Part shown: piece by piece, positions 2,376-51,781 of the stretch
Layout of the letters: each line of letters begins with the position of its first letter
Position numbering within the stretch: the first letter of the stretch is position 1
NCBI GenBank assembly: GCA_944380415.1
Contig: CALWHN010000002.1
Location: forward strand, 1 to 58,733
Origin: an uncultured Clostridia bacterium
GTDB lineage: Bacteria; Bacillota; Clostridia; Christensenellales; UBA1242
Direction: 5' to 3'
DNA length: 58,733 bases
The notes under the pieces: model-generated
Told to the model about the DNA's origin: nothing
What the model saw: only the letters and a program-made list of their open reading frames with translations
Databases searched by the model: none
Program-made: the position numbers and the translations under genes

Positions 2376-2994
2376 TCAAAATAAATGGGAGAGGGCGGGA
2401 GCAGCAGTTAAAGTTGACAAATATTTAAGAAAAATTGGTTGCGACCCAAAACTTCCCGTAAACCTTTCAAACATCTTAGTTAACATGGGCTTTGACCTTT
2501 TTGTTTCAGACGACCCAAATTTTTTTGCAAAATTTAGGTATAGCGAAGACGACAAATTTTTGATTGTTAACAGAAGAATTCAGAAAGACAAAGCAAAATA
2601 TATTAAACTTAAAGCATATGTTATTTCAATTGTAAATCACTATCAAAGCATAGCTGAGCAGAACCTTAAAACAAGAACCAAAGAGGCGATTGAAAACGCG
2701 CGCTTTGTTTATGAAGAAACAGTTGATTTCAACGAAATTGACGAATATAGGGCGCTCCAGACGCATGAAGAGCGAAAGGCGTTTAAGAAAAAATATCTGG
2801 ACGATTTGGTTGAAACCTTTTTTGAGGATCACGCGCCAGACGATTTTGTTGAACTGGACATAAACATTCCTCGCAATTACAAGGAAAAAATTATATATGA
2901 CAATGACCAGGCAGAAAAAACTTTACTTTTGTTTGCAGAAGAGCTTGCTACGAGGGATTCAACACTTAAAGTAGTTAAAGGTTTGGAATTCTAA
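2359..2994 (+). CDS. hypothetical protein, translationally coupled partner of the HExxH protein
   Basis: ATG at 2359 preceded by GGAG and overlapping the upstream stop (2373-2375). 211 aa with no motif I recognise. Followed by a terminator. Confidence 0.6.
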   Translation: MIIPFDQNKWERAGAAVKVDKYLRKIGCDPKLPVNLSNILVNMGFDLFVSDDPNFFAKFRYSEDDKFLIVNRRIQKDKAKYIKLKAYVISIVNHYQSIAEQNLKTRTKEAIENARFVYEETVDFNEIDEYRALQTHEERKAFKKKYLDDLVETFFEDHAPDDFVELDINIPRNYKEKIIYDNDQAEKTLLLFAEELATRDSTLKVVKGLEF

Positions 2995-3018
2995 CGCGAA
3001 AAATTTTTCGCGTTTTTT
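2995..3018 (+). terminator. rho-independent terminator
   Basis: Perfect hairpin CGCGAAAAA/TTTTTCGCG followed by a T6 run. Confidence 0.75.
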
Positions 3019-3019
3019 G

Positions 3020-3048
3020 TTGACAACAGGGGGTTTTTGTGGTAAATT
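3020..3048 (+). promoter_or_regulatory. sigma-A-type promoter of the rplU-prp-rpmA operon
   Basis: TTGACA (3020-3025), 17-nt spacer, TAAATT (3043-3048). Confidence 0.6.
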
Positions 3049-3133
3049 AACTTCGTGCCGCGTTAAAGTGGTTTTTTATTAAGTTTCATTTTGAACACCA
3101 TAAGAGCGAGTTTGGTTAGAGGAGGTAAAAATA
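3049..3133 (+). promoter_or_regulatory. 5' leader of the L21 operon (candidate ribosomal-protein L21 leader element)
   Basis: An untranslated leader of about 85 nt lies between the promoter and the rplU RBS. Firmicutes are known to carry a structured L21 leader at this position. The structure was not verified here. Confidence 0.35.
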
Positions 3134-3439
3134 ATGTTTGCAGTTGTTCAAACCGGCGGAAAACAATATAAAGTTTCTGTTGGCCAAGAAATTTCTGTTG
3201 AAAAGATTGAGCGCAACGTTGGAGACAAAATTAAACTTGATGTTTTAATGATTTGTGACGGCGAAAACGTTAAAGCGGGAAATCCAATTCTTGATGGCGC
3301 TGTTTGCGAAGCAGAAGTTGTTGAGCATGGAAAAGGCGACAAGATTGTTGTTTTCAAATATAAAGCTAAGAAAAATGAACGTAAAAAACAAGGCCACAGA
3401 CAGCCTTACACAAAAATTAGAATTACGGCAATAAAATAA
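3134..3439 (+). CDS. rplU: 50S ribosomal protein L21
   Basis: MFAVVQTGGKQYKV N-terminus, 101 aa, GGAGG RBS. Confidence 0.95.
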   Translation: MFAVVQTGGKQYKVSVGQEISVEKIERNVGDKIKLDVLMICDGENVKAGNPILDGAVCEAEVVEHGKGDKIVVFKYKAKKNERKKQGHRQPYTKIRITAIK

Positions 3440-5745: not shown

Positions 5746-6753
5746 ATGGGAATGAACTTTTTAGGACTTTCAGGTGGAATGATTGCGCTAATCGTAGTGC
5801 TTTGTGTTCTTGCAGTAATTTGCATAGTTATATTGAGCTTGGTTCCAATTAAACAATGGTTTGTTGCGCTTGTTTCAGGTGCCCATGTTTCAATGGGAAG
5901 GCTAATTGGAATGAGGCTTAGAAGGGTTAAAGTTCCGCCAATTGTTTCAGCTTATATCCAAGCGAAAAAGGCAGGAATTGATATTGACATTGTTGACCTA
6001 GAGACTCACTACATGGCAGGAGGAGATATTGACAAAGTTATTGTTGCATTAATCTCTGCTCACAGTGCTAAGTTGCCGCTTTCTGTTGACCAGGCAAAGG
6101 CAATTGACCTCGCTGGACGTGATGTTGCAAAAGCAGTTAAAATGTGTGTTACCCCAATTGTTATTGAAACGCCATGGATCAGCGCTATTGCAAAGGACGG
6201 AATTGAGCTTAAAGTTAAAGCAAAAATAACTCTTAGAAGTAACCTTCCAAGGCTTGTTAGAGGAGCGGGAGAAGAAACAATTTTGGCTCGTGTTGGCGAA
6301 GGAATTGTTACAACAGTTGGTTCAGCGTTGACACACACGGAAGTTTTGGAAAACCCAGATATAATTTCTAAAACAGTTTTGAACAAAGGTCTTGACGTTT
6401 CAACTGCGTATGAAATTCTTTCAATTGAAATGGCGGACATTGATGTTGGACAAAACGTTGGTGCTAAACTTAACATAGATAGGGCGGAAGCAGACAAATC
6501 GATTGCTCAAGCTAAGGCAGAGGAAAGAAGGGCAATGGCAAGCGCTATCGAGCAAGAGATGAAGGCTAAAACTCAAGAAATGAAAGCAATGGTTCTTGCG
6601 GCAGAGGCTGAAGTTCCAAAAGCAATGGCAGACGCAATTAAGAGCGGAAACCTTGGAGTTATGGATTATTATAAAATTCAAAATTTAAACTCAGACACCG
6701 CAATGAGAAACTCAATTGCAGGGGTTGACAAAAAGAAACCAAGCGGAGATTAA
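5746..6753 (+). CDS. floA: flotillin-like protein FloA (YqfA family)
   Basis: Collinear with my recollection of B. subtilis YqfA ([71 protein letters not shown]). Confidence 0.9.
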
Positions 6754-6762
6754 TTAAATTGA

Positions 6763-6788
6763 AAGTGGCCGCAAGGCCACTTTATTTA
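6763..6788 (+). terminator. rho-independent terminator-like hairpin after floA
   Basis: AAGTGGCC-GCAA-GGCCACTT followed by TATTT. Confidence 0.55.
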
Positions 6789-6810
6789 AAATGTGAGAGG
6801 AAGCAAAATT

Positions 6811-7452
6811 ATGACCTGGCTAATTGTTGGAATTTGTGTTTTGGTTGTTGGAATTATAATTTATTATTCCATTCCTCTTTTTAAAAAATTTTTTGGAAAT
6901 CGAGACGCCAGCAAAAGCGCCGAAAGGGCAACTAAACGTGCAATTAAAAAAGAAGAGAAGCGCGCTGAAAAAGAGGAAAAGAACGCTTTAAAAAAGCGCA
7001 GAGAGCAAGCGCCAACTCCAGTTGCGCAAACAGAGCAGCAGGCAAGCGAAAACTCTTTGGTAAACGAAAATGCAATTGACCTCAAAGAAGACCCAGATGA
7101 AAAGGTCAATATGGAAAACTTGAGTTATGACGGATATTTCGACTCGCCGTCAATAGCACCTGCTCAACAAAAACCTATTACAGAAACCAATCCGCTTGAG
7201 GAAAATGTTGACGACCTTTTTAACAGAATTTTTAACATTGACAAGCCAGAAAGCAAAATTAGAAATCAAACTCCAACTTTTGTTTCGGACGGAACAATTG
7301 ACGGAAGAGATGAAGAGATTAGAGATTTTCTTGAAGAATTTGAAAGAATTAACAGCGGAAGCGATAAAAGTTCAATTGCCGAAGATTTTGAAAAGCTCTC
7401 GCCAGAGATGAAGGCGCTTATGATTTCAAATTTCTTAGACAGAAAAGAATAG
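6811..7452 (+). CDS. single-pass membrane protein with a K/E-rich and acidic cytoplasmic region
   Basis: ATG at 6811 (MTWLIVGICVLVVGIIIYY). One N-terminal TM followed by low-complexity KKEEKRAEKEEK. No recognisable domain. Confidence 0.55.
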   Translation: MTWLIVGICVLVVGIIIYYSIPLFKKFFGNRDASKSAERATKRAIKKEEKRAEKEEKNALKKRREQAPTPVAQTEQQASENSLVNENAIDLKEDPDEKVNMENLSYDGYFDSPSIAPAQQKPITETNPLEENVDDLFNRIFNIDKPESKIRNQTPTFVSDGTIDGRDEEIRDFLEEFERINSGSDKSSIAEDFEKLSPEMKALMISNFLDRKE

Positions 7453-7484
7453 TTGGCAGAAGATATTTACAAAGTGAATTTTGA

Positions 7485-7528
7485 CACCATATAATTTACG
7501 CGGAAATTAAATTATATGGTGTTTTTTT
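7485..7528 (+). terminator. strong rho-independent terminator at the left edge of the phage-like block
   Basis: 13-bp stem CACCATATAATTT/AAATTATATGGTG followed by a T7 run that extends up to the ATG at 7529. Confidence 0.75.
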
Positions 7529-7816
7529 ATGAGCAAAAAATTTTCAGAGAAAAAAATTGACGAGGCAATTTATAAAAAAGCCGTTGGCTATGAAGCAAAC
7601 GAAGTTGTTGAAGAATTTGTCTTGGACGAGAAGGGAGAATATAAATTAAATAAAAGAAAGATAACAAAAAAACACATTTCTCCCGATCTCTCAGCCGCAA
7701 AGCTTCTTTTAGAAAAAGCTGAGGCAAAAAAGGACAAATATTCAACAATGACAGACGAAGAGCTTTACCGCGAGAAGGTTAGGCTTTTGGAGCTTTTGGA
7801 AAGCTTGAAAGAATAA
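7529..7816 (+). CDS. terminase small-subunit-like remnant (C-terminal half only, no HTH)
   Basis: AVGYEANEVVEEF...KKHISPDLSAAKLLLEK resembles the recalled ...AxGYEYEE...TKHVPPDVTAxIFWLKNR segment of Firmicute-phage TerS proteins. The ORF is 95 aa with no SD, and its ATG abuts the T-run of the upstream terminator. Confidence 0.4.
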   Translation: MSKKFSEKKIDEAIYKKAVGYEANEVVEEFVLDEKGEYKLNKRKITKKHISPDLSAAKLLLEKAEAKKDKYSTMTDEELYREKVRLLELLESLKE

Positions 7817-7824
7817 ATTATTAG

Positions 7825-7850
7825 AATTGGAAGGGTTTCTTCCAATTTTT
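7825..7850 (+). terminator. terminator-like hairpin between the TerS-like ORF and the portal gene
   Basis: AATTGGAAG-GGTTT-CTTCCAATT followed by a T run. Confidence 0.45.
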
Positions 7851-7878
7851 GATAATTAAAACTTATTTAGGAGGAAAA

Positions 7879-9771
7879 ATGAAAAAAGAACAAATTAAAA
7901 AGCAAGAAATTTTTGAGGAGGATTTAGTTAGAGAAGTTTTAGAAGACTTTAAGCGCAGGCAATATGAGCGAAAAAACTTTGAAACCCAATGGGAACTAAA
8001 CATGAACTTTTTGATGGGAAATCAATATTGTTGCATTGGCCCATCTGGAGAAGTTGAAGAATATGACAAACAATTCTATTGGCAGGAGAGGGAGGTTTAT
8101 AACCACATTGCTCCAATTGTTGAAGCAAGGCTTGCACGTCTTTTAACTTTAAAACCGAATATGACGGTTGTTCCGGCTTCCGGCGACGAGCGCGATGTTA
8201 AAACGGCAAAGCTTTCTAAAAAAATTGTCAACGCGGTTTACAACAAGCTTTGTGTTAGTGGAGTCATATCTGAGGCAAACAACTGGAGCGAAGTTTGTGG
8301 AACAAGTTTTTACAAAGTTACTTGGAACCCAGAGAAGGGAACGCTTTTAAGAGAAGATGAAAGCGGAAAATATTTCAGCGGAGAGGTTGAGGTTACTGTT
8401 TGCCCTCCATTTGAGATTTATCCAGAAAGTTCAAGCTGCGGAGATGTTGGGAACTGCAAGTCAATTATCCACGCGAAGGCATATCACGTTGACGACATCA
8501 AGAAAAACTGGGGAGTTGAAGTTAAGGGCGAAGACATAAACGTTTTCTCTCTTGACAATGTTTCGGCAATTGGCAGCTATGGATATTTTGGAAACGTTGG
8601 AAAGGTTGTTAGCGGCGTTAGAAGCAACTATGCAATTGTTATAGAGAAATATGAAAGCCCTTCTGTTGATTTCCCTAATGGAAGGTTGATTATTGTTGCT
8701 GGCGACAAACTAGTTCACATTTCAGAACTTCCATATATCAATGGAAACGACGGCGAACGAGGTTTTCCATTTATCAAACAAACGTGTATTGACCATCCGG
8801 GCTGTTTCTGGGGCTCGTCAGTTATTGAGAGATTAATTCCAATTCAGCGCTCATTTAACACGCTTAAAAACAGAAAGCATGAGTTCATGAACAGGCTTTC
8901 AATGGGGGTTTTGACCGTTGAAGATGGCTCTGTTGACACAGATAATTTGCAAGATGATGGGCTTTCTCCTGGAAAGGTTTTGATTTACAGGCAGGGAGCA
9001 ACTCCGCCAAGGTTTATGAATTTTGACAGTGTTCCAATTGACTTTACAAACGAAGAGAATATGCTTTTGAACGAGTTCACATATGTTAGCGGCGTTTCAG
9101 ACCTTTTAAGAAATTCCGTTGCAAGCTATGCGAACATGTCGGGCGTTGCGCTTCAAGTTTTGGTTGAGCAAGATGAAACAAGAATTTCAATTACGGCGGA
9201 GCGAATTAGAGAAGCAATTAAGACAATGGCAAAGCAGGTTTTGAAGTTGTATCGCCAATTTGCAACCGTTCCGCGCCTTACAAAAATTGTTGGAGACAAT
9301 GGCGACATTGAAGTCTTCTACTTTACAGCTTCTGACATTTCAAGCGACGACATCGTTTTTGAAACAGGAAGCGAAATTGGAGAAACTGTTGCCCAGAAGC
9401 GCAGCATGGTTTTTGACCTTTTAAATGCAGGGCTTTTGCACGATGAAAATGGAAAACTTTCAAACAGAATGAGAGTTAAAGCCTTGGATTTACTTGGTTT
9501 TGGCGTTTGGGAAAACGCCCAGGATATAAACGAGCTTCACCTTAAAAAAGCTTCGAATGAGAATTTAAAGTTCATGGATGGTGAGGAAATCGAGCCTTTG
9601 GAAGTTGACGACCACAGCATTCACATAACAGAGCACACGGCGCTTCTTCTTGGAAGTGAATTTACCAAAAAAGCTGAGAGAAATAAAAAGCTTATGGAAA
9701 ATGTTTTAAAACACATTAGAAGACACAAACAAATGAGGGCGATTTCAGAATCCTTGGAAAATAACAATTAA
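7879..9771 (+). CDS. phage portal protein
   Basis: ATG at 7879 after AGGAGG. 630 aa. The N-terminal pattern RRQYERKNFETQWELNMNFLMGNQY, the size and the position before scaffold and capsid all fit portal proteins. Confidence 0.7.
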   Translation: MKKEQIKKQEIFEEDLVREVLEDFKRRQYERKNFETQWELNMNFLMGNQYCCIGPSGEVEEYDKQFYWQEREVYNHIAPIVEARLARLLTLKPNMTVVPASGDERDVKTAKLSKKIVNAVYNKLCVSGVISEANNWSEVCGTSFYKVTWNPEKGTLLREDESGKYFSGEVEVTVCPPFEIYPESSSCGDVGNCKSIIHAKAYHVDDIKKNWGVEVKGEDINVFSLDNVSAIGSYGYFGNVGKVVSGVRSNYAIVIEKYESPSVDFPNGRLIIVAGDKLVHISELPYINGNDGERGFPFIKQTCIDHPGCFWGSSVIERLIPIQRSFNTLKNRKHEFMNRLSMGVLTVEDGSVDTDNLQDDGLSPGKVLIYRQGATPPRFMNFDSVPIDFTNEENMLLNEFTYVSGVSDLLRNSVASYANMSGVALQVLVEQDETRISITAERIREAIKTMAKQVLKLYRQFATVPRLTKIVGDNGDIEVFYFTASDISSDDIVFETGSEIGETVAQKRSMVFDLLNAGLLHDENGKLSNRMRVKALDLLGFGVWENAQDINELHLKKASNENLKFMDGEEIEPLEVDDHSIHITEHTALLLGSEFTKKAERNKKLMENVLKHIRRHKQMRAISESLENNN

Positions 9772-9784
9772 TTGGAGAAAAAAT

Positions 9785-10462
9785 ATGGAAAAAGATGAAA
9801 TTATTAGGGAACAACCTTTTGAAAGCGAGCAAGCACAAGAGAGTATTGTTGATTTTGAAGAAAAAAGCGGTGCCACTACGTCGCAGCAAGAAGGCTCCCA
9901 ATTTGGAAAATTTTCTTGTGCAGAAGATTTGGTTAATGCATACAACAATCTTCAAGCGGAGTTTACAAGAAAATGCCAAAAACTTAGCGAAATTCAAAAG
10001 CATATTGCCGAAAAGGAAATTGAAGAAACTTCTTTAAAAGATGAAACAAAGGAAATTTCTCCGGCTTTTATGCAAGAGGACTGGCGAAGTCGCGTTTCAG
10101 AATTTCTTCAAAAAAACGAACGCGCCAGCGAATTTTCGCGCGAAATTTCAAACGAAATTTTGAAAGACAAAGACCTTCAAACTTCGCCAAATATGCTTGA
10201 AATTGCATATGGAAGGGTTTTGGCAAAGAAATATAAAACGCCAGACCAAATTGCAAGCGAATCTTCATTTATGGAAAAATATGTTCTTTCAAATGAAGAT
10301 GTCAGGCGAAAAATTTTTGGAAGCTACTTAAGCCAAATTCAAAAAGCGCCTCATGTAATTGGCGGAGAAATTAAAGGCGGAGTTAGTTTGCTTCCTAAAA
10401 GAAGTAAACCAGAAACATTAAATGACGCCAAAATTTTGGCAGAAAAATTTTTAAATAATTAA
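9785..10462 (+). CDS. putative capsid scaffolding protein
   Basis: 225 aa, acidic and helical. It lies between the portal and capsid genes. The EDLVNAYNNLQAEFTRK segment resembles scaffold N-termini as I recall them. Confidence 0.5.
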   Translation: MEKDEIIREQPFESEQAQESIVDFEEKSGATTSQQEGSQFGKFSCAEDLVNAYNNLQAEFTRKCQKLSEIQKHIAEKEIEETSLKDETKEISPAFMQEDWRSRVSEFLQKNERASEFSREISNEILKDKDLQTSPNMLEIAYGRVLAKKYKTPDQIASESSFMEKYVLSNEDVRRKIFGSYLSQIQKAPHVIGGEIKGGVSLLPKRSKPETLNDAKILAEKFLNN

Positions 10463-10556
10463 TTTTTTTTAAAAAATATTATTTATTTTTTATAAATGAT
10501 ATTAAAAACATAAAAAAAATAAAAAAATTAATTATTTATTTATTAAAAAATAAAAA
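10463..10556. other. almost pure A/T tract upstream of the capsid gene
   Basis: By eye only two G/C bases occur in about 94 nt, with several TATAAA/TATTAA-like hexamers. It ends at the AAGGAG RBS of the capsid gene. Confidence 0.8.
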
Positions 10557-10570
10557 AAAGGAGATAAAAA

Positions 10571-11794
10571 ATGGTTTCATTAACAAGCGCAAGCAACGCG
10601 CTTAAAAATGTTTATTTAGGCGTTGTTGCAAACCAATTAAACACAAATGCAAACCCTCTTCTTGGAAAGATTGAACAATCTACAAGTGATGTTTGGGGTA
10701 AGCAAATTATTAAACTTGCGCCTTTTGGAATTAACGGCGGTATTGGAGCAGGAACGGAAACAGGAACGCTTCCAATTGCAGCTGAAAACCAATATGTTCA
10801 GTTTGTTACAGACCTTAAAAACCTTTATGGAAGAATTTCAATTTCAGATAAGGCTATGAGGGCTTCTGCAAACAGCGCAGGCGCATTTGTAAATCTTTTA
10901 AATGCAGAAATGGAAGGGCTTGTAAAAGCAAGCAGCTTCAACTTTGGCCGTATGCTATATGGCGACGGCTCTGGCCTTTTGGCAACAGTTGTTTCTTTTG
11001 AAAGCTCAACAGGGGCAATCACGGTTGACAGCGTTAGAAATTTGATTGAAGGAATGGTCATTGATGTTTACAACACATCTGGAAAAGTTGCTGCTTCAAG
11101 CGGAAAGAGAATTTCCTATGTTGACAGAGCAAACAACAAATTCTATCTTGATGCAACAGCATCTGCACTAAGCTTTGCAAAGAACGATGAAATTTATGTT
11201 CAAAATTCAAAGGGCCTTGAAATTACCGGCCTTGGGGCAATTTTTGGCTCTGCTGAAAAGCTCTATGGCTTGACAAAAGCGGACTATCCTTGGCTTTCTC
11301 CATATGTTGATTCAACAACAAAAGAAATTTCTGATGAAACAATTCAGGCAGGTTTAGACAGCCTTGAAGAAAGCGGCGGACTTAGCGCAAACTTTATAAC
11401 ATGCTCCAGAGCAGTTAGAAAGGCATATCAAAAATATCTTTCATATTTTAGAAGGAATATTGATGTTATGGACCTTGCTGGCGGTTTTAAAGCAATTACA
11501 TACAACGGAACTCCAATCTACGCAGACAGGTTTGTTAAGGACGATGAAATGTATCTTTTAAACACAGACGAATTCACATTGCATCAACTTTGCGACTGGA
11601 AGTGGCTTGAGGGAGATGACGGAAAGGTTATCAAACAAAACCCAGACGAGGCAACTTATTGCGCAACATTGGTCAAATACGCAGATTTGATTTGTAACAA
11701 ACCAAATTCTCAGGGAAAAATTTCTGGAATTTCTGCAACTGTTACAAACCCATTTGCAAGCACAACAGTTTCTGATGACGGAGAATCAGCCTAA
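10571..11794 (+). CDS. major capsid protein (HK97-fold family type)
   Basis: 407 aa. ISISDKAMRAS...FVNLLNAEMEGLVKASSFNFGRMLYGDGSGLL matches the recalled conserved core of HK97-type capsid proteins. It follows the scaffold gene and has a strong RBS. Confidence 0.7.
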   Translation: MVSLTSASNALKNVYLGVVANQLNTNANPLLGKIEQSTSDVWGKQIIKLAPFGINGGIGAGTETGTLPIAAENQYVQFVTDLKNLYGRISISDKAMRASANSAGAFVNLLNAEMEGLVKASSFNFGRMLYGDGSGLLATVVSFESSTGAITVDSVRNLIEGMVIDVYNTSGKVAASSGKRISYVDRANNKFYLDATASALSFAKNDEIYVQNSKGLEITGLGAIFGSAEKLYGLTKADYPWLSPYVDSTTKEISDETIQAGLDSLEESGGLSANFITCSRAVRKAYQKYLSYFRRNIDVMDLAGGFKAITYNGTPIYADRFVKDDEMYLLNTDEFTLHQLCDWKWLEGDDGKVIKQNPDEATYCATLVKYADLICNKPNSQGKISGISATVTNPFASTTVSDDGESA

Positions 11795-12126
11795 TGTTAT
11801 ATGAAATTTTAAACGATGTTTTTTTCATTAGCGATAGAATTAAAGAAATTGATGAAAATTATAAAATCTATTTTAATTCCGAAAAAAATAAGTTTGAAAT
11901 TCACAATATTGGTCAAATTGGGGACAGTTATTGTTTAACTGTCCCTTTCCAATATTTGGATTTTCGAACTATTGATTTAGTTAAAAAAACTCTTTCAATA
12001 AATGGAGAAAAATTGCTTGAAGAAATAGATTTAAATAATAAAAAAATTAGTGAAATTAATGAAAAAATAATTTTTAATAAGGCCAAAGACCAATTATTTG
12101 ACGAAATTAAATATTCTAAAAATTAA
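11794..12126 (+). CDS. hypothetical small protein, markedly AT-rich ORF
   Basis: The start overlaps the capsid stop (TAATG). 110 aa, rich in N/K/I. Visibly lower GC than neighbouring genes. Confidence 0.5.
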   Translation: MLYEILNDVFFISDRIKEIDENYKIYFNSEKNKFEIHNIGQIGDSYCLTVPFQYLDFRTIDLVKKTLSINGEKLLEEIDLNNKKISEINEKIIFNKAKDQLFDEIKYSKN

Positions 12127-12137
12127 AAGGAGGAAAT

Positions 12138-12707
12138 ATGACGGCAAAAGATGTTATTAAAGTTGTTTGCGTTTTTTTGCAAAAGGAAGAGCTTTTGGAA
12201 CTTGAAGACCTTGGAGGAACAGAGGAGGCAACCGAATCTCAAACAAAAGAACTTGAACACATGCTTAGATGTTTAAATCTCGTTGTAAACGAAATTGCAA
12301 CGGATTACATTCCGCTTTTGTTTAAAGAAACGGTTTTTCCAACGGGCGGCCAAGTTCTGCTTAGTTCGCTTACGAAAAATCCAATTGATATTTTAAGAGT
12401 TGAAGACAGGTTTGGAATTAGAGTTAACTATAAGCTTTTTCCAGACTATTTAGAAACAATTGACGGCGAAGTTAAAATTCTTTATTCTTATGAGCCGGCG
12501 GAGTCCACAGCGCTTTCGCAAGCCCTTGAAAACTTTTCACAAAAAATTGGCGAAAGGGTAATTGCATATGGCGTTGCAATGGAATATTGTTTCATATGTG
12601 GTCTTCATGACGACGCATCAATTTGGGAGAAACGCTTTAAAGATGCGCTTTTAATTGCATCTAGAAAAAAATCGGAAATTAAGCTTCCGAAACGGAGGTG
12701 GAATTGA
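12138..12707 (+). CDS. putative head-tail adaptor / head completion protein
   Basis: 189 aa with an AGGAGG RBS. The assignment rests on its position after the capsid gene only. Confidence 0.35.
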   Translation: MTAKDVIKVVCVFLQKEELLELEDLGGTEEATESQTKELEHMLRCLNLVVNEIATDYIPLLFKETVFPTGGQVLLSSLTKNPIDILRVEDRFGIRVNYKLFPDYLETIDGEVKILYSYEPAESTALSQALENFSQKIGERVIAYGVAMEYCFICGLHDDASIWEKRFKDALLIASRKKSEIKLPKRRWN

Positions 12708-14212
12708 TGTTTTATCAAAATTCTTTGCTTTTAAAAAACAAATCAACATATAAGCTTTCTCTCTCAACTTTCAAAAACGGAATCAACACAGAAATTGAAG
12801 AAAACTCGCTTCCTTTTAAATATGCAAAGGTTACCTACAACTATAATTTTAAAAGAGGCGCTTTGCAAACTGGGCACGGCTTTGACGACCTTTATCTTCC
12901 AGAATCCAGCAGTGAAAACCCAGTTATGAGAAAGGTTGCCGTTAGCGGAGAATATACAAAGCTCAACCGAATTTGGCTTTTTCCATATTATAACCACATA
13001 ATGAACGTTCGCGACCACATGCTTCTTCTAAGCCAGGACGACAAAGTTTTGTATGCTAGAATAATTGCGGTTAATCCATATTTTTATGATGTCAGTTACA
13101 GCGGCCAGACCTTTGAGTCCGAGCCAAACGCTGTTTACTATAACATCAATGGCGAAGATGTCATGCTTGTCACGTCTGAAACAGATGGAATGTATGTTTT
13201 CTCTCCAACACTTGAAGAAGAAATTTTGGATGAACCAAAAATTATCTCAATCTGTAGGCACTATGAAAGAGTTTTTGCAATTGAGGAAGGAAAGCGGAAC
13301 AAACTTATTTTCAGCGCAAACTTGGACCCAACAAATTGGAATGTTGACATTGACGAGGCAGGATATATTGAAATTATTGACGACAGAGGAAGATTGGAAA
13401 AGGTTGTTAGTTTTAACGATTATGTTTACATATTCAAAGAATATGGAATTTCAAGGCTTTCAGCATATGGCGATCAAACTGAATTTAGCTTGTCAAGCGT
13501 CTTTGTAACAAGCGGGAAGATCTATGCCAATTCTGTTTGTGTTTGTGGAGATAGAATTATGTTCCTTGCGCGCGATGGAATATATTCTTTCAATGGTTAC
13601 AGTGCAACGAAACTCACGCTAAACATTGAATCTCTTTTTGAGGAACACAACGACAACTGCTGTTCTGCCTACCACAACGGCAAATATTATTTGGGTTGCA
13701 AGCTGAAATATGACGACGGAGAAGTTATTGGCTGCGAGGGCTATTCAGACGGCTATGTCAACAACACTTTAATTGAATATGACCTTAAAACAGGCGAAAT
13801 CAATCTTACGAGAGGAGTTGACCTAAAGTGGCTAATTTCAATTGAATATGACACCGTTAACAAGCTTGCCGTGCTCTTTAACGGCGAGCATAAGAAAAAA
13901 ATTGGCGAGATGAATGATTCCGGAGAGGTTTTTGGAACGCCGCTAAAAAAGATTTGGACATCTTCATATTCCAACCTTGGCTATCCAGGGAAGATTAAAA
14001 AGATTGAAAAGTTTTCATTGATTTCTAAGCACGAATGTAAAATTAAAATTAAAACCGATGTTGAAAGCGAAACATTCGAAGTCAAGGGCAAGGATTCAAC
14101 AACGACAATTTATCCAAATTTAAAGGGTGAAATGTTTCAATTTTCAATTGAATCTGACGGGTCAGATGCCCATGTTGCATGCCCAGAAATTTCAATTGGG
14201 ATTAGCCAATGA
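12707..14212 (+). CDS. putative tail/nozzle structural protein (repetitive beta-rich)
   Basis: ATG at 12707 overlaps the upstream TGA and has a GGAGG 8 nt upstream. 501 aa with recurring hydrophobic-Y/F-x-G strands (VYIFKEYGISRLS, IMFLARDGIYSFNGY, NGKYYLGCK) that suggest a propeller-like or beta-sandwich fold. Confidence 0.4.
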   Translation: MFYQNSLLLKNKSTYKLSLSTFKNGINTEIEENSLPFKYAKVTYNYNFKRGALQTGHGFDDLYLPESSSENPVMRKVAVSGEYTKLNRIWLFPYYNHIMNVRDHMLLLSQDDKVLYARIIAVNPYFYDVSYSGQTFESEPNAVYYNINGEDVMLVTSETDGMYVFSPTLEEEILDEPKIISICRHYERVFAIEEGKRNKLIFSANLDPTNWNVDIDEAGYIEIIDDRGRLEKVVSFNDYVYIFKEYGISRLSAYGDQTEFSLSSVFVTSGKIYANSVCVCGDRIMFLARDGIYSFNGYSATKLTLNIESLFEEHNDNCCSAYHNGKYYLGCKLKYDDGEVIGCEGYSDGYVNNTLIEYDLKTGEINLTRGVDLKWLISIEYDTVNKLAVLFNGEHKKKIGEMNDSGEVFGTPLKKIWTSSYSNLGYPGKIKKIEKFSLISKHECKIKIKTDVESETFEVKGKDSTTTIYPNLKGEMFQFSIESDGSDAHVACPEISIGISQ

Positions 14213-15213
14213 TTTCTCTTTCAAGCGTTAAAAAAATTGTTGATGAAAAAAACAAAAAAAATTTCAATGAGTTAGGAGGAATAAAAATGTATTCTTACAA
14301 GACAACCAATTCAGATTCAAATTTTGATGAGGCAAAACAAAATGTTCTAAACAAACTTCAAGAAATTGAAGATAAGTACACTATTTTAGAGTTTGTTCCA
14401 GAGGAAACAACCTCTCTTGGCCTTGAGAAACAGGAGTTCACCGCGCCAACGGAGGATGAAATTAGGCTGGAAGCTGAAAAATCTTTAAGCGCTCAAAAAG
14501 AAAATGAACGAGAGGAAATTGAAAACACCTATGAAGGCAAGTTCAACAATTTAAACAACGAAGTTGAGGACGTTGCTCTTGAAAGGGACGAGGATGTTGA
14601 AGCCGCGGCTTCAAATTTTCGCTCTTCGCTTAGAGATGCAACAAATTCAAGCATCAAACAGGGAATTTCAAGAAGTTCAATTTATGATGAGGCGGTTAAA
14701 GCAATTGAGGGCGAGCGAAATTCTTTAATTAGCGCAGCAGAAGAGGAGTTTAACAGGGAAATGAGCAGGCTTGAAAAGGAAATTGACCTTTTGCAAAGAC
14801 AAAAGGACAACGCCCTAGAGGCCTTTGATATTTCCTATGCAATTAAGCTTGAAGACAAAATTGCAGACATAAACAAGGACATTGCAAACAAACAAAAAGA
14901 GGTTGAAAAATATAACGAAAATGTTGACAAGCTTGAAGCGGAAAATTTAAAAGCTCAAGAACAGGCAAACGCTCAAAGGCAACAGGAAATTGAAAAACAC
15001 AACGAAGAACTTTTAAAGCAAATTGAAAAACTTGGCGAAGCAGGGGTTACCCAACAAAAACTAAGGGAAAGATATCAAGTTGTTTTAGATTTTCTTATGT
15101 CAATTCCAAAAGATGTTGCTTTAAGCGAGCTTACAAAAGACAACTATTATGAAACTCTTTTAAGCAATTACTATCCTTCTGTCTACGCTCAAATTTTGCG
15201 AAGAGACGACTAA
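14209..15213 (+). CDS. coiled-coil virion protein (function unknown)
   Basis: ATGA overlap with the upstream stop. An alternative start at 14287 has a strong AGGAGG RBS. Long heptad-like E/K/Q-rich stretches. Confidence 0.45.
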   Translation: MISLSSVKKIVDEKNKKNFNELGGIKMYSYKTTNSDSNFDEAKQNVLNKLQEIEDKYTILEFVPEETTSLGLEKQEFTAPTEDEIRLEAEKSLSAQKENEREEIENTYEGKFNNLNNEVEDVALERDEDVEAAASNFRSSLRDATNSSIKQGISRSSIYDEAVKAIEGERNSLISAAEEEFNREMSRLEKEIDLLQRQKDNALEAFDISYAIKLEDKIADINKDIANKQKEVEKYNENVDKLEAENLKAQEQANAQRQQEIEKHNEELLKQIEKLGEAGVTQQKLRERYQVVLDFLMSIPKDVALSELTKDNYYETLLSNYYPSVYAQILRRDD

Positions 15214-15221
15214 GAGAAAAA

Positions 15222-15653
15222 ATGTGGGAAGACATTTTAAATATAGTAATTTCTAACGGAATTTTCGCAACCCTTTTCGTTGGGCTTTTGCTCTATCTTT
15301 TAAAGGACAGCAGCAAGCGTGAGGACAAATATACAAACACAATAAATTCTTTAAATGAAAATTTAAACAGCGCCCTTGACATTGGCGAAAAGGTTGACGA
15401 GGTTAAAATGAGTGTTGAGGACATGAAGGATGAACTCGACGAAAACAACCAGGAGATTGGAAAGGTTTCGTCAATTGCAAAGGACATTGGCGGAAAGCTT
15501 GAGGAAACAACCATTTCACTAAACTCTCTTGACGAAAGCCTTAAAAATCACACAAAAATTATTAAAAAAGTTTCAGCAGATGTTAAGGTTGTTAAAAAGG
15601 ACGTTAAAGAAATTAAAAAACATGTTTTTCCAAAAGAGGAGGAAACAAAATGA
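15222..15653 (+). CDS. BhlA/UviB-family holin-like protein with a coiled-coil tail
   Basis: NGIFATLFVGLLLYLLKDSSKREDKYTNTINSLNENL aligns with my recollection of BhlA (QGPFAVLFCWLLFYVMKTSKERESKLYNQIDSQNEVL). Confidence 0.6.
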   Translation: MWEDILNIVISNGIFATLFVGLLLYLLKDSSKREDKYTNTINSLNENLNSALDIGEKVDEVKMSVEDMKDELDENNQEIGKVSSIAKDIGGKLEETTISLNSLDESLKNHTKIIKKVSADVKVVKKDVKEIKKHVFPKEEETK

Positions 15654-15940
15654 AAGATAGAATAAAATCTTATAGCTTTTGGGTTGGCCTTTCTGGCGCA
15701 ATTGTTGCGTTTGTTTCTGCAATTGGAAAGGCGGTTGGCTTCATTCCAAACGAGGAACTAATCAGCAGCATAATCTTGGGATTTGCTGGAGTTTTAGTTG
15801 CGCTTGGAGTTGTTTCCAAGCCAAAATCGGCAGGGGAGGAAAAAACAGAAGAAACCTTGGCCGAGGAAAACGCCGAAAGCGAAACAAAAGCCGAAGAGGA
15901 AACAGGCGAAGGCCAAAGCGAAGAAACAAAAATTAATTAG
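15650..15940 (+). CDS. phage holin (two-TM, phage_holin_1-like)
   Basis: ATGA overlap with the upstream gene. SFWVGLSGAIVAFVSAIGKAVGF...IILGFAGVLVALGVVSKP gives two TM helices, followed by a charged C-tail. Confidence 0.55.
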   Translation: MKDRIKSYSFWVGLSGAIVAFVSAIGKAVGFIPNEELISSIILGFAGVLVALGVVSKPKSAGEEKTEETLAEENAESETKAEEETGEGQSEETKIN

Positions 15941-15961
15941 AAGACGCTAAAATAGTTAAAA

Positions 15962-15987
15962 GAAGAGGCCAAGTGGCCTCTTTTTTT
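15962..15987. terminator. bidirectional terminator between the holin gene and the convergent deacetylase gene
   Basis: AAGAGGCC-AAGT-GGCCTCTT flanked by an A-run and a T7 run. Confidence 0.7.
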
Positions 15988-16726
15988 AAGCAATTGTTTC
16001 TGAAACGGTTGTTAAATTAAAACCCTGATCTTTCAACGTTTTAATTATATCTGGAAGGGCGTTTGCTGTTTCTTTGGTTGGGTGCATCAAAATTAAATCT
16101 CCGCCTGCTGCGTTTTTAACCGCGCGCGAATATATAAGTTCGCGGTCTTGGTCGCGCCAGTCAATTGTGTCGCGCGTCCACATAATTGTTGTGTATCCAA
16201 GTTCTTTGGCAACTTGAAGTGTTGTTTCGCTGTAGGAGCCGCTTGGCGGAGCAAAAAGCGTCATTTCAACATTTAAAAGCTCTTTTATTATGTCGGTTGT
16301 CTTTGAAATTTCGGTTTTGTTTATTTCAAGGCTTTTTTCCTTAAGGTCTGGGTGAGAATAGGCATGGTTTGCAATTTCGTGGCCGCCATCATAAATTTCC
16401 TTTAAAATTTCTGGATAGTCCTCGGCCCAAGAGCCGCCAATGAAGAACGTTGTTTTAACATCGTTTTCTTCAAGCGTTTCGAGCATTTTTGGAATGTATT
16501 CATTTCCCCAATAGACGTTTATCATGAGGCAGATGTTGTTGGATTCCGTGTTTCCTTGATAGATTGCCTCCTCTTGGGAAGAACTTGTAACATTTAAAAT
16601 TCCGCCTGCATAGGTTAGTGCAAAAAGTCCGATTAAAACGAAGCCAATTACACAGTTTGCAAAAATATTTCTAAACAAATTTGCCTTGTTCTTTTTGCTG
16701 TTATTAAAAAACCCACATATTTTCAT
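15986..16726 (-). CDS. polysaccharide deacetylase (NodB domain), sporulation PdaB-like
   Basis: N-terminal TM. INVYWGNEY...TTFFIGGSWAE...GHEIANHAYSHPDL is the NodB motif set with the PdaB-like first motif. Confidence 0.7.
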   Translation of the reverse strand: MKICGFFNNSKKNKANLFRNIFANCVIGFVLIGLFALTYAGGILNVTSSSQEEAIYQGNTESNNICLMINVYWGNEYIPKMLETLEENDVKTTFFIGGSWAEDYPEILKEIYDGGHEIANHAYSHPDLKEKSLEINKTEISKTTDIIKELLNVEMTLFAPPSGSYSETTLQVAKELGYTTIMWTRDTIDWRDQDRELIYSRAVKNAAGGDLILMHPTKETANALPDIIKTLKDQGFNLTTVSETIA

Positions 16727-16764
16727 ACATGGGTAATTTATGCTTTTTATTTCGCTAATAAAAC

Positions 16765-17028
16765 CTATTCTTTTGAAATTTTTTCCAAATATTGTTTAAC
16801 TGCCTGTGCTGCTTCTTGACTTTTAAAAGACTCTAAAATTTCTTTTGAAGCTTGGAGCTTTATTTTTTTGTCCTTTTCTTTTACAAAGTTGTAAGCAACA
16901 AGATTCAGCGGGGCAGAGCAGAACGGACAGAAATTGAAAATTTGATTTGGAACTTCAATCTTTAATTCTTTTCCGCAACTTTTACAGAAACTTTTTTTGT
17001 CAACTGTTTCAACACCAAATTTCATTGC
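16765..17028 (-). CDS. zinc-ribbon protein (CxxC...CxxC)
   Basis: Start chosen at 17028 (MKFGVE), after AAGGAG. CKSCG...CPFCS. 87 aa with a helical C-tail. Confidence 0.6.
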   Translation of the reverse strand, partial: AMKFGVETVDKKSFCKSCGKELKIEVPNQIFNFCPFCSAPLNLVAYNFVKEKDKKIKLQASKEILESFKSQEAAQAVKQYLEKISKE

Positions 17029-17035
17029 TTTCTCC

Positions 17036-18175
17036 TTATTCGAAAGTATATTGCTCTGTTCTTGGCGAAGGTTTTGCTTCTGGTTGAGCTGGTTTTGAAG
17101 TTCTGTAAATTTCAGATTCTTTTGTTTTGTAGGACTTGTCAACATAGAAGTCAATTGATCTTTCAAGGTCTTCTCTCATAACCATGTTTTCAAGCATTAC
17201 ATCGTTTAGCTTTCTGTAAAGTTCTTCGTCAATGTATGTGTCGTGGTTAACGCCAATTGTTAAGCAAATTGCTGTTCTGTCAAATGGGTCATCTTTAATT
17301 GTGTTTGTTGTTCTAATTGAATCTTGGTGGAGATCTTGGTTTTTCTCTTCAATTTTAAGTTCGATATATCTTTGATTAATTCCATATTTATCAACTTTTT
17401 GAGAAGGAGCAATTTGAGGCATGTCCGTGTAGCCAGTTGGGCTTATTAGCGTTTGCTCACGGAATTCTGAAATTCCTCTAACTTTTGAAGATGCTGTTAT
17501 AATTCTCTTTTTGGTGTAGAACCTTGAAGAACTTGTGTCAACAATGAGATGTTTTTCAACATTTGAATTGGAAAGTTTTGTCAACTTTGTTGCAATTGCG
17601 TTCGTTGTTGCAGAAATTGGAGCAGTGCTTGTAAAAAGCGAGGTCATATATTTATTTTCGTTTCCAGTAAGTTCGTTGTTGAAAATAAAATTTAGTTCAA
17701 CTTTTATGTCGCCATAATATCTGTCTAAAATTCCTAAATTTTGTGCAACAAGCTTGCTTGTTTCAATTGGCCATTTTAACTTTCTGTCGTCAAGATATTT
17801 TGTTTCTGTAATTCCGTTATACATGAACAAAATTTTTCTTTTATCTGCCTTGCGCAAAACTTCGGAAAGGTCGTTTGCAAAGATTTGAGCATAGTTGGAT
17901 TTTTCTTCGGTTGTTCCAGCAGGGTAGTAGAACAAATTTCCGCCAAGGAAAAATGCGCCGTCTTCCATATCGTTGATTCTCTTAATCTGATCCAAAAGAA
18001 TTTCAAGCCTTGGAGGGGTTTGAGGGTTTCCATAGAACAAATTTTGAATTGGAAGAAGCTCAATTTTTCTTTGACCTTTTGGAAGAACAATTGTTCCATA
18101 AAGGCCTTTTGCCTTTCTCTCTTCGGAAAGCCTTTGACTATAGGCCTTGTTGAGGACTCGTTGAAGTTTGTCCAT
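17036..18175 (-). CDS. degenerate (probably catalytically inactive) calcineurin-like phosphoesterase paralogue
   Basis: Strong GGAGGG RBS. Motif positions parallel the upstream gene, but the metal ligands are replaced: LLPIQNLFYG for TDNHWG, LGGNLF for NGDN, YNGITE for GNHD, VDTSS for DHGN. Confidence 0.5.
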   Translation of the reverse strand: MDKLQRVLNKAYSQRLSEERKAKGLYGTIVLPKGQRKIELLPIQNLFYGNPQTPPRLEILLDQIKRINDMEDGAFFLGGNLFYYPAGTTEEKSNYAQIFANDLSEVLRKADKRKILFMYNGITETKYLDDRKLKWPIETSKLVAQNLGILDRYYGDIKVELNFIFNNELTGNENKYMTSLFTSTAPISATTNAIATKLTKLSNSNVEKHLIVDTSSSRFYTKKRIITASSKVRGISEFREQTLISPTGYTDMPQIAPSQKVDKYGINQRYIELKIEEKNQDLHQDSIRTTNTIKDDPFDRTAICLTIGVNHDTYIDEELYRKLNDVMLENMVMREDLERSIDFYVDKSYKTKESEIYRTSKPAQPEAKPSPRTEQYTFE

Positions 18176-19316
18176 TTTTCCCTCCAGTTTTGTAGTAGTT
18201 ATTAATTAAATCGCGAACGGCTTTTCTATTGCCTGGGTTGAAATTGTTTCTTAGCTCTTCATATTTTTCCTTAAGCCTGTTCGCCTCTTCCATTCCAAAC
18301 CTCCAAAGTTCGTTTGGAATTGGCCTACAATCACAATAGACAGAGGTTTTGCTAAGGCTGCGCCTTTCTTTTTGGGTTGAACCAAGTAAATGTTCGTTCT
18401 TCTTTGTTCCAATTGTTATAAGCTTTAAATCGCTTGGAGCAGCTTCATATCTCTCTTCCAAAGCATACATTTCTTGGCCCATTGTTGCTGGAAGAATTAT
18501 AACAGAGATGTCATCGTTTATTGATTTTCCAGTTTCTGGGTCAATAACACGTTTGGTTCTATATTCTGCCATCATGTCTTGGTGGACATGGCCAAAGATT
18601 GCAACGTTTGCACCTTCGGATTTTGCAAGGTTAAGGCCCTTATCAAGCTTTGTTCCATCTCCGCCTTTTAAGCTGTTTCCGTGGTCTATAAAGATTTTAA
18701 CATCCTCATAGCCCTTTCTGTTGTCTGCTTTAAGCCTGATTGTTAGAAGCGTTGAAAATCTTGAATATTTTTCATAATAGGGCGTTCCAGCAAAGAAAGT
18801 TGCCAAAATATCCGTTCCAAAACTTTGGGTTCGCTTTCCGTTGTCGTGGTTTCCTGAATTTATGAAAAGCGTTTTGTTTTTAACTATTTCGTCCATGAAA
18901 ATTTCATACCAAAGTTTAAGTTCGATAACAGGAGAAAGGGCGTTGTCCAGCGGGCTGGAAACGCATTCTTCCGTGTTTATTGCATTGTTTCTGTTATCTC
19001 CGTTATAACCGAGATAGATGTTTGGACAATATTTTGCAATTAGCTGGGCAACGATTGAGGGCATGAAGTGGGATGAGATTGAACCCCAGTGGTTGTCTGT
19101 TAAAACTAAAAGACTGAAGTTGTCTCTGTTAGACATGTCATAGAAAAGGTGGTTAATTTGCTTTGGGGCTTCGTTTTTAATAATTTCGTTATAGGCCTTT
19201 GCAGCGGGATATTCCGGAAGTTCATCAGCTCTGAAAATGTTGGAAGTGAACCCTTTTTTTGTTGTAATTTTGGTGTTTTTCGCACCTGAAAAATCTTCAA
19301 TTGGTGGTGTTGCCAT
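18138..19316 (-). CDS. calcineurin-like metallophosphoesterase
   Basis: Start at 19316 (MATPPIE) after GAGGG, because the longer ORF-track start would lie inside the promoter -35. The motifs LTDNHWGS, NGDNRNN, SGNHDNG, IDHGN and FGHVHQD are intact. Confidence 0.7.
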   Translation of the reverse strand: MATPPIEDFSGAKNTKITTKKGFTSNIFRADELPEYPAAKAYNEIIKNEAPKQINHLFYDMSNRDNFSLLVLTDNHWGSISSHFMPSIVAQLIAKYCPNIYLGYNGDNRNNAINTEECVSSPLDNALSPVIELKLWYEIFMDEIVKNKTLFINSGNHDNGKRTQSFGTDILATFFAGTPYYEKYSRFSTLLTIRLKADNRKGYEDVKIFIDHGNSLKGGDGTKLDKGLNLAKSEGANVAIFGHVHQDMMAEYRTKRVIDPETGKSINDDISVIILPATMGQEMYALEERYEAAPSDLKLITIGTKKNEHLLGSTQKERRSLSKTSVYCDCRPIPNELWRFGMEEANRLKEKYEELRNNFNPGNRKAVRDLINNYYKTGGKNGQTSTSPQQGL

Positions 19317-19347
19317 GTGTCCCTCGCTAAGCTTTTTTTCTGAAAAT

Positions 19348-19376
19348 ATGATACTATAAATTTGAGAAAAAGTCAA
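19348..19376 (-). promoter_or_regulatory. sigma-A-type promoter of the phosphoesterase operon
   Basis: On the minus strand: TTGACT, 17-nt spacer, TATCAT. Confidence 0.55.
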
Positions 19377-51756: not shown

Positions 51757-51781
51757 AAAAAGCCACAAAATGTGGTTTTTT
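51757..51781. terminator. bidirectional terminator between comM and sigG
   Basis: A7-GCCACA-AAA-TGTGGT-T7. Confidence 0.7.

Follow-up and report, generated by a model that had tools for sequence, protein, structure and literature searches.

A ten-gene operon of podovirus-type virion and lysis genes

We analysed a 58.7-kb stretch of Christensenellales DNA, referred to below in its whole length as the window, and in it an 8.4-kb block of phage-type genes (7529-15940, + strand). The block comprises ten intact, co-directional and coupled open reading frames (ORFs) that form one operon, with a promoter at the 5' end and a bidirectional terminator at the 3' end (Table 1). The findings discussed below suggest that it probably encodes the head, short tail and lysis functions of a podovirus-derived element that is fixed in the chromosome and is of the gene transfer agent (GTA) kind, a 'viriform' that would make particles packaging host DNA. 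An ORF check confirmed the ten genes at the coordinates and on the + strand where a preliminary description of this DNA had placed them, the four junction strings it reported are exact (TAATG at 11792-11796, TGATG at 12705-12709, ATGA at 14209-14212 and ATGA at 15650-15653), and 62 nt do separate the TerS-like ORF from the ATG of the portal gene (7879). For comparison we searched the GTDB species-representative genomes, of which at least 308 species gave matches, and examined the best 80 loci together with 10-kb flanks; labels such as L001 denote related loci compared with the window.

Table 1. Genes of the operon and the signals at its borders, numbered from the first position of the window.
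Feature	Position	Strand	Evidence and remarks
TTGGCAG upstream element, candidate activator site	7455-7461	+	4 nt before the -35 hexamer
Sigma-70-type promoter, TTTACA-18-TATAAT	7466-7495	+	11/12 matches; top-scoring promoter-like site in 6500-17500
Perfect 15-bp hairpin (ACACCATATAATTTA/TAAATTATATGGTGT) with T7 run	7484-7528	+	terminator of the upstream floA/g219 unit; overlaps the -10 hexamer
TerS-like protein, 95 aa	7529-7816	+	phrog_309 terminase small subunit, 4.5e-6; partial match only, residues 3-63 aligning with positions 191-244 of the 319 in the profile
Portal, P22 type, 630 aa	7879-9771	+	Pfam PF16510 P22_portal, 1.1e-15; phrog_156, 1.5e-33
Scaffold-position protein, 225 aa	9785-10462	+	between portal and capsid genes as in P22; conserved in 78 loci
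Major capsid protein, podovirus family, 407 aa	10571-11794	+	phrog_14242, 5.9e-56; NCBIfam NF033394 capsid_maj_Podo, 263 bits (cut-off 80)
g110, 110 aa	11794-12126	+	at the position of P22 orf69; conserved in 73 loci; GC 21%
g189, 189 aa, candidate head-to-tail adaptor	12138-12707	+	position of P22 gp4, between capsid and nozzle genes; conserved in 73 loci
Tail nozzle/hub, 501 aa, P22 gp10 / T7 gp12 fold class	12707-14212	+	AlphaFold2 model and Foldseek; phrog_3287 virion structural protein, 2e-11
DUF7934 coiled-coil protein, 334 aa	14209-15213	+	Pfam PF25588, 8.9e-35; position of the P22 coiled-coil needle gp26
BhlA-family holin-like protein, 143 aa	15222-15653	+	N-terminal transmembrane (TM) segment and coiled coil; Pfam PF10960, 3.4e-13; phrog_2429, 1.6e-15
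Two-TM holin, 96 aa	15650-15940	+	phrog_297 holin, 4.4e-9; Pfam Phage_holin_1, 3.3e-4, slightly below its cut-off
Bidirectional intrinsic terminator	15956-15989	both	15-pair stem, then T run; closes the operon and the convergent deacetylase gene

The portal, the capsid protein, the nozzle and both holins could be identified firmly. Family profiles (P22_portal and phrog_156 for the portal, phrog_14242 and capsid_maj_Podo for the capsid) bear out the first two assignments, and a broad profile of the capsid family also reaches a solved capsid protein, 6j3q_A, among PDB sequences (1.8e-7); single-sequence phmmer searches of the PDB with the portal and the capsid protein gave no matches. The holin assignments were likewise supported, by Pfam for the BhlA-family protein and by phrog_297 for the second holin. 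The TerS-like ORF, previously taken for a fragment, proved to be a full, conserved protein of about 100 aa that is present in 62 loci.

Structure prediction was decisive for the nozzle, whose start is most likely the ATG at 12707, giving 501 aa and not the listed ORF of 504 aa. An AlphaFold2 model built from 62 homologues (pLDDT 86.2, pTM 0.88) had as its best Foldseek matches only podovirus tail nozzle or hub proteins, namely those of the Pseudomonas phage Pa223 tail (9nwi_Y; E 1.6e-21, TM 0.73), the Vibrio phage VP1 portal-tail (8zkk_O; E 3.4e-17, TM 0.71), the phage GP4 portal-tail (E 3.3e-15, TM 0.55) and P22 gp10 (8eap_D; E 7.5e-14, TM 0.56-0.59), followed by SU10, T7 gp12, Sf6 gp8 and BFVD viral predicted structures named 'P22 Gp10'. 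The podovirus analogy drawn earlier from gene order is thus confirmed by a fold, while the nozzle profile aligned to P22 gp10 by hhalign had a probability of about 0.1%.

The P22 order is portal, scaffold, coat, orf69, gp4 (166 aa), gp10 (472 aa) and gp26 (a 233-aa coiled coil). Since the order and sizes of the genes in the block are collinear with these, g189 is a candidate head-to-tail adaptor by its position, and the DUF7934 protein by its own is a candidate tail needle, plug or other virion protein. The 225-aa protein had no family match in Pfam, PHROGs or NCBIfam, and its place between the portal and capsid genes suggests a scaffold. Profiles of g110, g189, the nozzle and the DUF7934 protein found nothing significant among PDB sequences, and the corresponding HMMs had no matches among the ORFs of Microbacterium phage Shocker or of an IMG/VR contig (L093); every member of the g189 and g110 alignments was also compared with PHROGs, which gave nothing informative. 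For g110, dN/dS is about 0.2-0.25 and the GC content at third codon positions (GC3) is 16%. In 47 of the 80 related loci the DUF7934 protein falls into one cluster with that of the window. In some lineages, one or two extra large genes lie between the nozzle gene and the DUF7934 gene (L075:13525-18066, L076:13746-18177, L057:13704-15272 and L064:13770-15080); one of them matches phrog_5302 'tail protein' (3.7e-27), and these genes are candidates for lineage-specific fibres or receptor-binding proteins that the window operon lacks.

Base composition is host-like, as previously judged by eye (GC 37.0% in the module and 37.5% in the rest of the window), the AT-rich exceptions being g110 and the spacer at 10463-10570. 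This 108-nt spacer, directly before the capsid gene, is nearly pure A+T and contains several palindromes. The 62-nt spacer before the portal gene (7817-7878) holds a hairpin, TTGGAAGGGTTTCTTCCAA, at 7827-7845, followed by TTTTTG. A Cys-rich ORF (CxxC...CxxC) of 70-75 aa occupies this place between the two genes in 38 related loci (e.g., L016:7331-7555) but is lacking in the clade of the window.

The module is conserved across Christensenellales and inherited with the host

Gene order was identical in 80 of the 80 loci compared, which come mostly from Christensenellales, and the copies are nearly all of full length. At least 6283 proteins are homologous to the capsid protein at 57-93% identity, from metagenome-assembled genomes (MAGs) labelled Christensenellales, Christensenella, Catabacter or Clostridia, and many of the related modules are situated well within contigs of 100-700 kb. 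The capsid proteins of the closest cultured phages, whose hosts are Arthrobacter and Microbacterium, are 25-27% identical, and IMG/VR contains only twelve short related fragments and one contig at 26% identity. Capsid relatives at about 30% identity occur in other Clostridia. The closed 2.3-Mb genome of Anaerofustis stercorihominis (CP176644.1, 1328630-1349859; L100:9191-11230) has a 31%-identical capsid gene and a 262-aa upstream gene, alone among PFL, GntR and glycolysis genes and with no portal gene within 10 kb; this pair represents such a system in a still more scattered or reduced form.

The context on the floA side is common to eight species (L001-L007 and L054), which with the window makes nine species sharing one chromosomal position. 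We computed dN/dS against six of the eight; the values are approximate, since dS is saturated (at least 1), and amount to 0.04-0.06 for the portal, 0.04-0.12 for the capsid protein, 0.055-0.15 for the nozzle and about 0.13-0.15 for the TerS-like protein, as against 0.04-0.07 for FloA, 0.05-0.065 for RuvC and 0.12-0.15 for the deacetylase among the neighbouring genes. Purifying selection on the portal and capsid protein is therefore comparable to that on FloA and RuvC, and close relatives displayed neither frameshifts nor a neutral substitution pattern. In more distant genomes with downstream neighbours in common, the identity of the capsid protein follows that of RNase J (rho 0.66) and of the neighbour c15 (rho 0.80), with a mean identity of 0.71 for the capsid protein and 0.64 for RNase J. 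Taken together, these sequence comparisons indicate that the module is vertically inherited and co-diverges with host genes.

These findings bear on whether the block is an artefact of assembly or binning, the rest of a normal prophage or phage having been lost by misassembly. The related sequences are indeed mostly MAG contigs. However, the junctions on the floA side recur in eight independently assembled MAGs from different studies, related modules are found far from the ends of long contigs, and terminator and promoter structures seal both ends of the block; we therefore regard an artefact as barely credible.

The preliminary description had listed a number of phage functions as missing. 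No large terminase subunit (TerL) is encoded in the 58.7 kb, as tblastn with the TerL proteins of relatives was empty and Pfam assigned the ten largest other ORFs to housekeeping families only. Prohead protease, tail tube, sheath and tape measure are also absent as stated, but this is no anomaly, for P22-type podoviruses normally lack all four. The block itself contains only head, tail and holin genes, with no replication, integration or lysogeny genes and no receptor-binding protein, and neither the block nor the window contains tailspike, fibre or ejection proteins. We saw no endolysin, integrase or fibre gene in the window, a result obtained by reading the remaining translations by eye, as opposed to scanning them exhaustively with HMMs; judged in this way, the other ORFs are genes of the ribosome, cell wall, tRNA modification and sporulation. 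Among the sporulation genes are a germination-protease-like ORF (42400-43170) and an ORF for a SigF/SigG-like sporulation sigma factor (51781-52554), recognized from their translations, which together suggest that the host forms spores. Lastly, no att-like direct repeats flank the block.

So many absent functions, and housekeeping genes on both sides, are what would be expected of the decaying remnant of a P22-like prophage that had lost its early, terminase and tailspike regions. Yet the ten ORFs are intact and still coupled, the set is kept at near-complete length in all 80 species representatives, dN/dS matches the low values of FloA and RuvC at saturated dS, and the composition is host-like. 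Simple decay, already considered the least comfortable explanation in the preliminary description, is accordingly the worst fit to an order intact throughout, to selection as strong as on FloA and RuvC and to co-divergence with housekeeping neighbours.

A phage satellite, either a phage-inducible chromosomal island (PICI) or one resembling the capsid-forming PICIs, would make its own capsid and borrow terminase, fibres and lysin from a helper phage. The small size of the block (8.4 kb), its own head genes unaccompanied by TerL, fibre or endolysin, and the few related fragments flagged as viral by IMG/VR would all suit such an element. Against it stand the lack of integrase, att-like direct repeats and replication or helper-interference genes; the single chromosomal position in nine species with saturated synonymous sites; the presence of the module in 80 of 80 related genomes, where it co-diverges with host genes; a conserved TerL of the element's own, adjacent in most relatives in which this could be determined (see below); and a best phage match of only 27% identity, with no close helper-type phage known. 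The satellite interpretation, one of three offered earlier, thus finds no support. Low dN/dS, co-divergence and the lack of att-like repeats combine to exclude a decaying remnant, to which we attach next to no probability, and strongly disfavour a mobile satellite, which we hold to be very unlikely.

In other genomes the large terminase is encoded beside the module or at a separate locus

The whereabouts of TerL could be scored in 50 of the 80 loci, those in which at least 6 kb upstream was readable. TerL adjoins the module on its upstream side in 32 of these and is not found there in the other 18. When the ORFs flanking the 80 modules were clustered, a set of recurrent neighbours that the window lacks came to light, in the order c13, c12, c11 and often c14, ahead of the TerS-like gene, c10 and the portal gene. 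The c13 protein (about 190 aa) has sigma-70 region 4 and a helix-turn-helix, and matches phrog_36 transcriptional regulator; c12, on the opposite strand, is a membrane protein of about 260-300 aa with no family; c11 is TerL (about 480 aa; Terminase_6N 1.2e-18, phrog_2 6.1e-32), in whose sequence Walker A and B motifs can be recognized; c14 is a large surface-anchored protein of about 790-1120 aa; and c10 is the Cys-rich ORF (72 aa) described above.

The TerL family numbers at least 5274 proteins that are 66-89% identical, and so is comparable to the capsid family in size and conservation. We traced five of these proteins, none of them from the eight sister MAGs, to their contigs: two belong to joined clusters and three to orphan loci. 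The orphan loci consist of the regulator, c12, TerL and c14, after which come DinB, Tex, McsB and ClpC; they are set among housekeeping genes, and no head genes occur within 10 kb. The sigma-70-region-4-like regulator, c12 and c14 accompany TerL in joined and orphan loci alike (L016:612-6917, L094:8720-14114, L095:8657-13872 and L104:8658-13857). Two forms of the system can therefore be distinguished, one joined and one split, and the window and its sister species appear to represent the head-locus half of the split form. We infer that TerL is encoded elsewhere in the window's own genome, as the TerS-like gene and the portal are still under purifying selection. Calling the module an orphan, as was done before, is accordingly misleading: TerL lies upstream of the TerS-like gene in the majority of scored relatives and at a separate conserved locus with the regulator elsewhere, and the block has the look of an orphan because its gene layout is split.

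The main alternative is that TerL was truly lost in the lineage of the window and that the portal-bearing capsid with its stubby tail was domesticated for something else than packaging DNA. It might deliver proteins or other cargo, act as a particle of the bacteriocin type or be a structure set free by lysis. The 58.7 kb without TerL, the same TerL-less layout beside floA in the whole nine-species clade, the still more dispersed case of Anaerofustis, with a capsid gene and one neighbour among housekeeping genes, and the tie of BhlA-type proteins to bacteriocin release as well (phrog_2429 annotation) all speak for this possibility. It is weakened by the TerS-like gene, which is intact throughout the clade at the dN/dS given above and for which we know of no role in the absence of terminase; by the orphan TerL loci of other genomes, which show the split layout to be normal for the system; and by the parity in number of the TerL and capsid families, although TerL is adjacent in only about two thirds of the determinable head loci. 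Loss of DNA packaging in this broad sense is in our judgement unlikely, and its more specific version, in which the clade of the window kept a portal-bearing, nozzle-capped podovirus capsid under strong purifying selection, for example as a holin-released particle that carries proteins or kills, is slightly less likely again. If true, a terminase-free particle would be a new kind of domesticated virion.

Promoter, upstream element and flanking genes

The arrangement of the operon promoter is kept in eight sister species, and the terminator hairpin of the floA/g219 unit is conserved in L001-L007. The left arm of this hairpin (7484-7522) contains the -10 hexamer of the operon, a feature kept in all sister species, in some of which a G-U pair replaces an A-U pair of the stem. 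The overlap may couple upstream termination to promoter use, or may act as an operator.

The element just upstream of the -35 hexamer recurs in relatives. A T[TG]GGCA[GCT] motif lies within 160 nt 5' of the TerS-like gene in 19 related loci and in the window, and TTTGGCA[GCT], placed a few nt 5' of the -35 hexamer, was found at the TerS-like gene in the window, in its sister species and in at least 10 other lineages. The shared TTTGGCAG element also precedes TerL (4-5 loci) and, in L066 and L095, the regulator gene; of the about 108 intergenic occurrences in 1.3 Mb, about 27 are located at TerS-like, TerL or regulator genes. This distribution points to a shared activator site, at which the c13 regulator possibly acts. 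We rejected a reading of the TGGCA element as a sigma-54 promoter (TTG(C) lies 1-2 nt too far away, and most copies have no GC at -12) as well as a second promoter before the capsid gene, where TTTGGCAG at 10436 occurs in only 6 of the 80 loci and inside coding sequence.

Upstream of the block lie genes for NfeD, FloA and a 219-aa membrane or charged protein, and downstream a convergent polysaccharide deacetylase gene, a Zn-ribbon ORF, a 379-aa ORF and genes for a metallophosphoesterase, RadC and RuvCAB. The flanks are thus the floA locus and the deacetylase gene, each with its terminator, as the preliminary description had it (Table 1). A deacetylase gene is found near the system in two layouts, in the window at 15986-16726, convergent and 3' of the holins, and elsewhere upstream of the regulator gene, as in L057 (242-1006), L066-L073 (about 2260-3400) and L079; the adjacency is possibly a coincidence, since the two sets are only 26-33% identical. 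At 16765-19376 on the - strand, three overlapping ORFs are conserved between the window and L003, L004 and L006: the Zn-ribbon ORF (listed at 133 aa, probably shorter), the 379-aa ORF, which has no family, and a 412-aa calcineurin-like metallophosphoesterase that matches phrog_7339 'DNA repair exonuclease' (5e-8). PADLOC found no defence-system match for the 379-aa, metallophosphoesterase, 219-aa, c12 and c13 genes. Farther upstream, a 485-aa ORF (918-2375) between a HIT-family gene and rplU-prp-rpmA is conserved in the sister species only, is rapidly evolving (dN/dS 0.27-0.46) and had no Pfam or PADLOC match.

A probable GTA-like element in two parts

Of the three interpretations put forward in the preliminary description, the third, a domesticated GTA-like capsid module, is favoured by the intact gene order, purifying selection and co-divergence. 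A signal under host control would turn on the sigma-region-4-like regulator, the gene of which lies beside TerL in relatives, and the regulator would activate promoters bearing the TTTGGCAG element just 5' of the -35 hexamer, including that at 7455-7495. Portal, scaffold-position protein and capsid protein would then assemble a small procapsid, into which the TerS-like protein and a Terminase_6-type TerL, encoded in this clade at a second locus outside the window, would load cellular DNA. The g189 candidate adaptor, the gp10/gp12-type nozzle and the DUF7934 protein would shut the portal and make a stubby tail, and the two holins would let the particles out. The particles are predicted to package host DNA and to transfer it to other cells.

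Several points weigh against this interpretation. The element is known so far as a set of genes. TerL, regulator, endolysin and receptor-binding protein are all absent from the 58.7 kb; TerL in this lineage is deduced from relatives, and the split layout has been pieced together from separate genomes, some with an orphan TerL and others with a head locus that has no TerL beside it. Saturation of dS also makes the dN/dS values approximate. Profiles of g189 and the DUF7934 protein, aligned by hhalign to P22 gp4 and gp26, had a probability of about 0.1%, and the single-sequence AlphaFold2 model of g189 (pLDDT 39.9) is unusable for an adaptor assignment. The parallel with FpGTA of Faecalibacterium prausnitzii, described as the first podovirus-like GTA (PMC12946183, Nat Commun, January 2026), is one of architecture and not demonstrated common descent, the capsids being in different NCBIfam families.

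In favour of the interpretation are the architecture shared with FpGTA (see below) and GTA-like packaging reported in two taxa of Christensenellaceae, with a peak at about 6.3 kb in QANA01 and at about 4.1 and 7.1 kb in HGM11616, even coverage and no genes assigned (PMC12946183). The head operon by itself measures 8.4 kb. The module is a natural candidate for this activity, because Christensenella-labelled MAGs carry it (L030-L037); the link is through taxonomy only. Our literature search found no paper on DUF7934 or on a GTA gene cluster of Christensenellales.

We nevertheless consider the GTA-like element the probable identity of the operon. Christensenellales are heritable, health-associated gut bacteria, and if the interpretation is correct, the genes described here are those of a GTA-like system common to hundreds of species of this order and a gene-level candidate for the packaging of 4-7 kb of host DNA that was reported in Christensenellaceae without genes. 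With such a split layout, in which a head-tail-lysis locus and a TerL-regulator locus stand apart, programs that search for prophages will wrongly call these loci remnants, and the shared promoter element and the sigma-like regulator offer direct experimental handles.

Comparison with known systems

The module resembles P22 in its P22_portal family protein, in collinear order and similar sizes from the portal to the needle position, in a nozzle of the gp10 fold and in lacking a prohead protease. It differs in that the block has no TerL, ejection proteins (gp7/gp20/gp16), tailspike, lysogeny or replication genes, and in that g189, the nozzle and the DUF7934 protein have no detectable sequence similarity to gp4, gp10 and gp26. 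Moreover, its capsid protein is at most 27% identical to that of any cultured phage, and the module is inherited vertically by its host.

With RcGTA of Alphaproteobacteria the module shares a phage-derived structural cluster that is chromosomally fixed, order-wide and under purifying selection, whereas RcGTA resembles siphoviruses, having a tail tube and a tape measure, and belongs to another capsid lineage and another phylum. The regulators of RcGTA are CtrA and GafA, which are unrelated by sequence, as far as tested, to those of the present system. Agents of the RcGTA type have a TerS without DNA-binding domain (Sherlock et al. 2019, cited in PMC12946183), and their genes are dispersed over several loci and controlled by the host (PMC12946183, introduction). 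Capsid-forming PICIs are likewise small chromosomal elements with their own capsid and portal that fall short of a full virion. They are mobile and sporadic, and possess an integrase, att sites, replication genes and a terminase of their own. Neither their integrase, att sites and replication module nor their sporadic presence was found for the present element.

The closest parallel in layout is FpGTA. Its operon I, of 10.5 kb, encodes a TerS without DNA-binding domain, TerL, portal, a Prp-like protein and a capsid protein of the N4-gp56 family, together with a nozzle resembling P22 gp10 and an abundant protein annotated 'TolA', and a second operon 125 kb away encodes fibres, holin and endolysin; its 40-nm particles contain 8.4-8.9 kb of host DNA and have been subjected to proteomics (PMC12946183). 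Both are chromosomal, podovirus-like systems of gut Clostridia that lack replication and lysogeny genes and have their genes spread over two loci. The order TerS, TerL, portal, small protein, capsid, two small genes, gp10-like nozzle and coiled-coil protein is common to both, on our side only when the adjacent TerL of relatives is included, and the nozzle gene of the window is likewise the third after the capsid gene. In contrast, the FpGTA capsid is annotated as N4-gp56 (RCH50849.1, PMC12946183 Supplementary Data 2) while that of the window matches only NF033394 in NCBIfam, so that the two are told apart by annotation; a Prp-like protein there takes the place of the 225-aa scaffold-position protein here; and in FpGTA the terminase gene stays with operon I while operon II takes the holin, endolysin and fibre genes, whereas here the holins end the head operon and TerL can be elsewhere. 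The particles and DNA of FpGTA are experimental findings, whereas the present element is known from genes. Because of the different capsid family, the protein encoded between portal and capsid and the partition of genes, we file it as a GTA-like element outside the FpGTA lineage. If our interpretation holds, it would be only the second podovirus-type GTA, seemingly built on another capsid family than FpGTA, a hint that Clostridia have domesticated short-tailed phages more than once.

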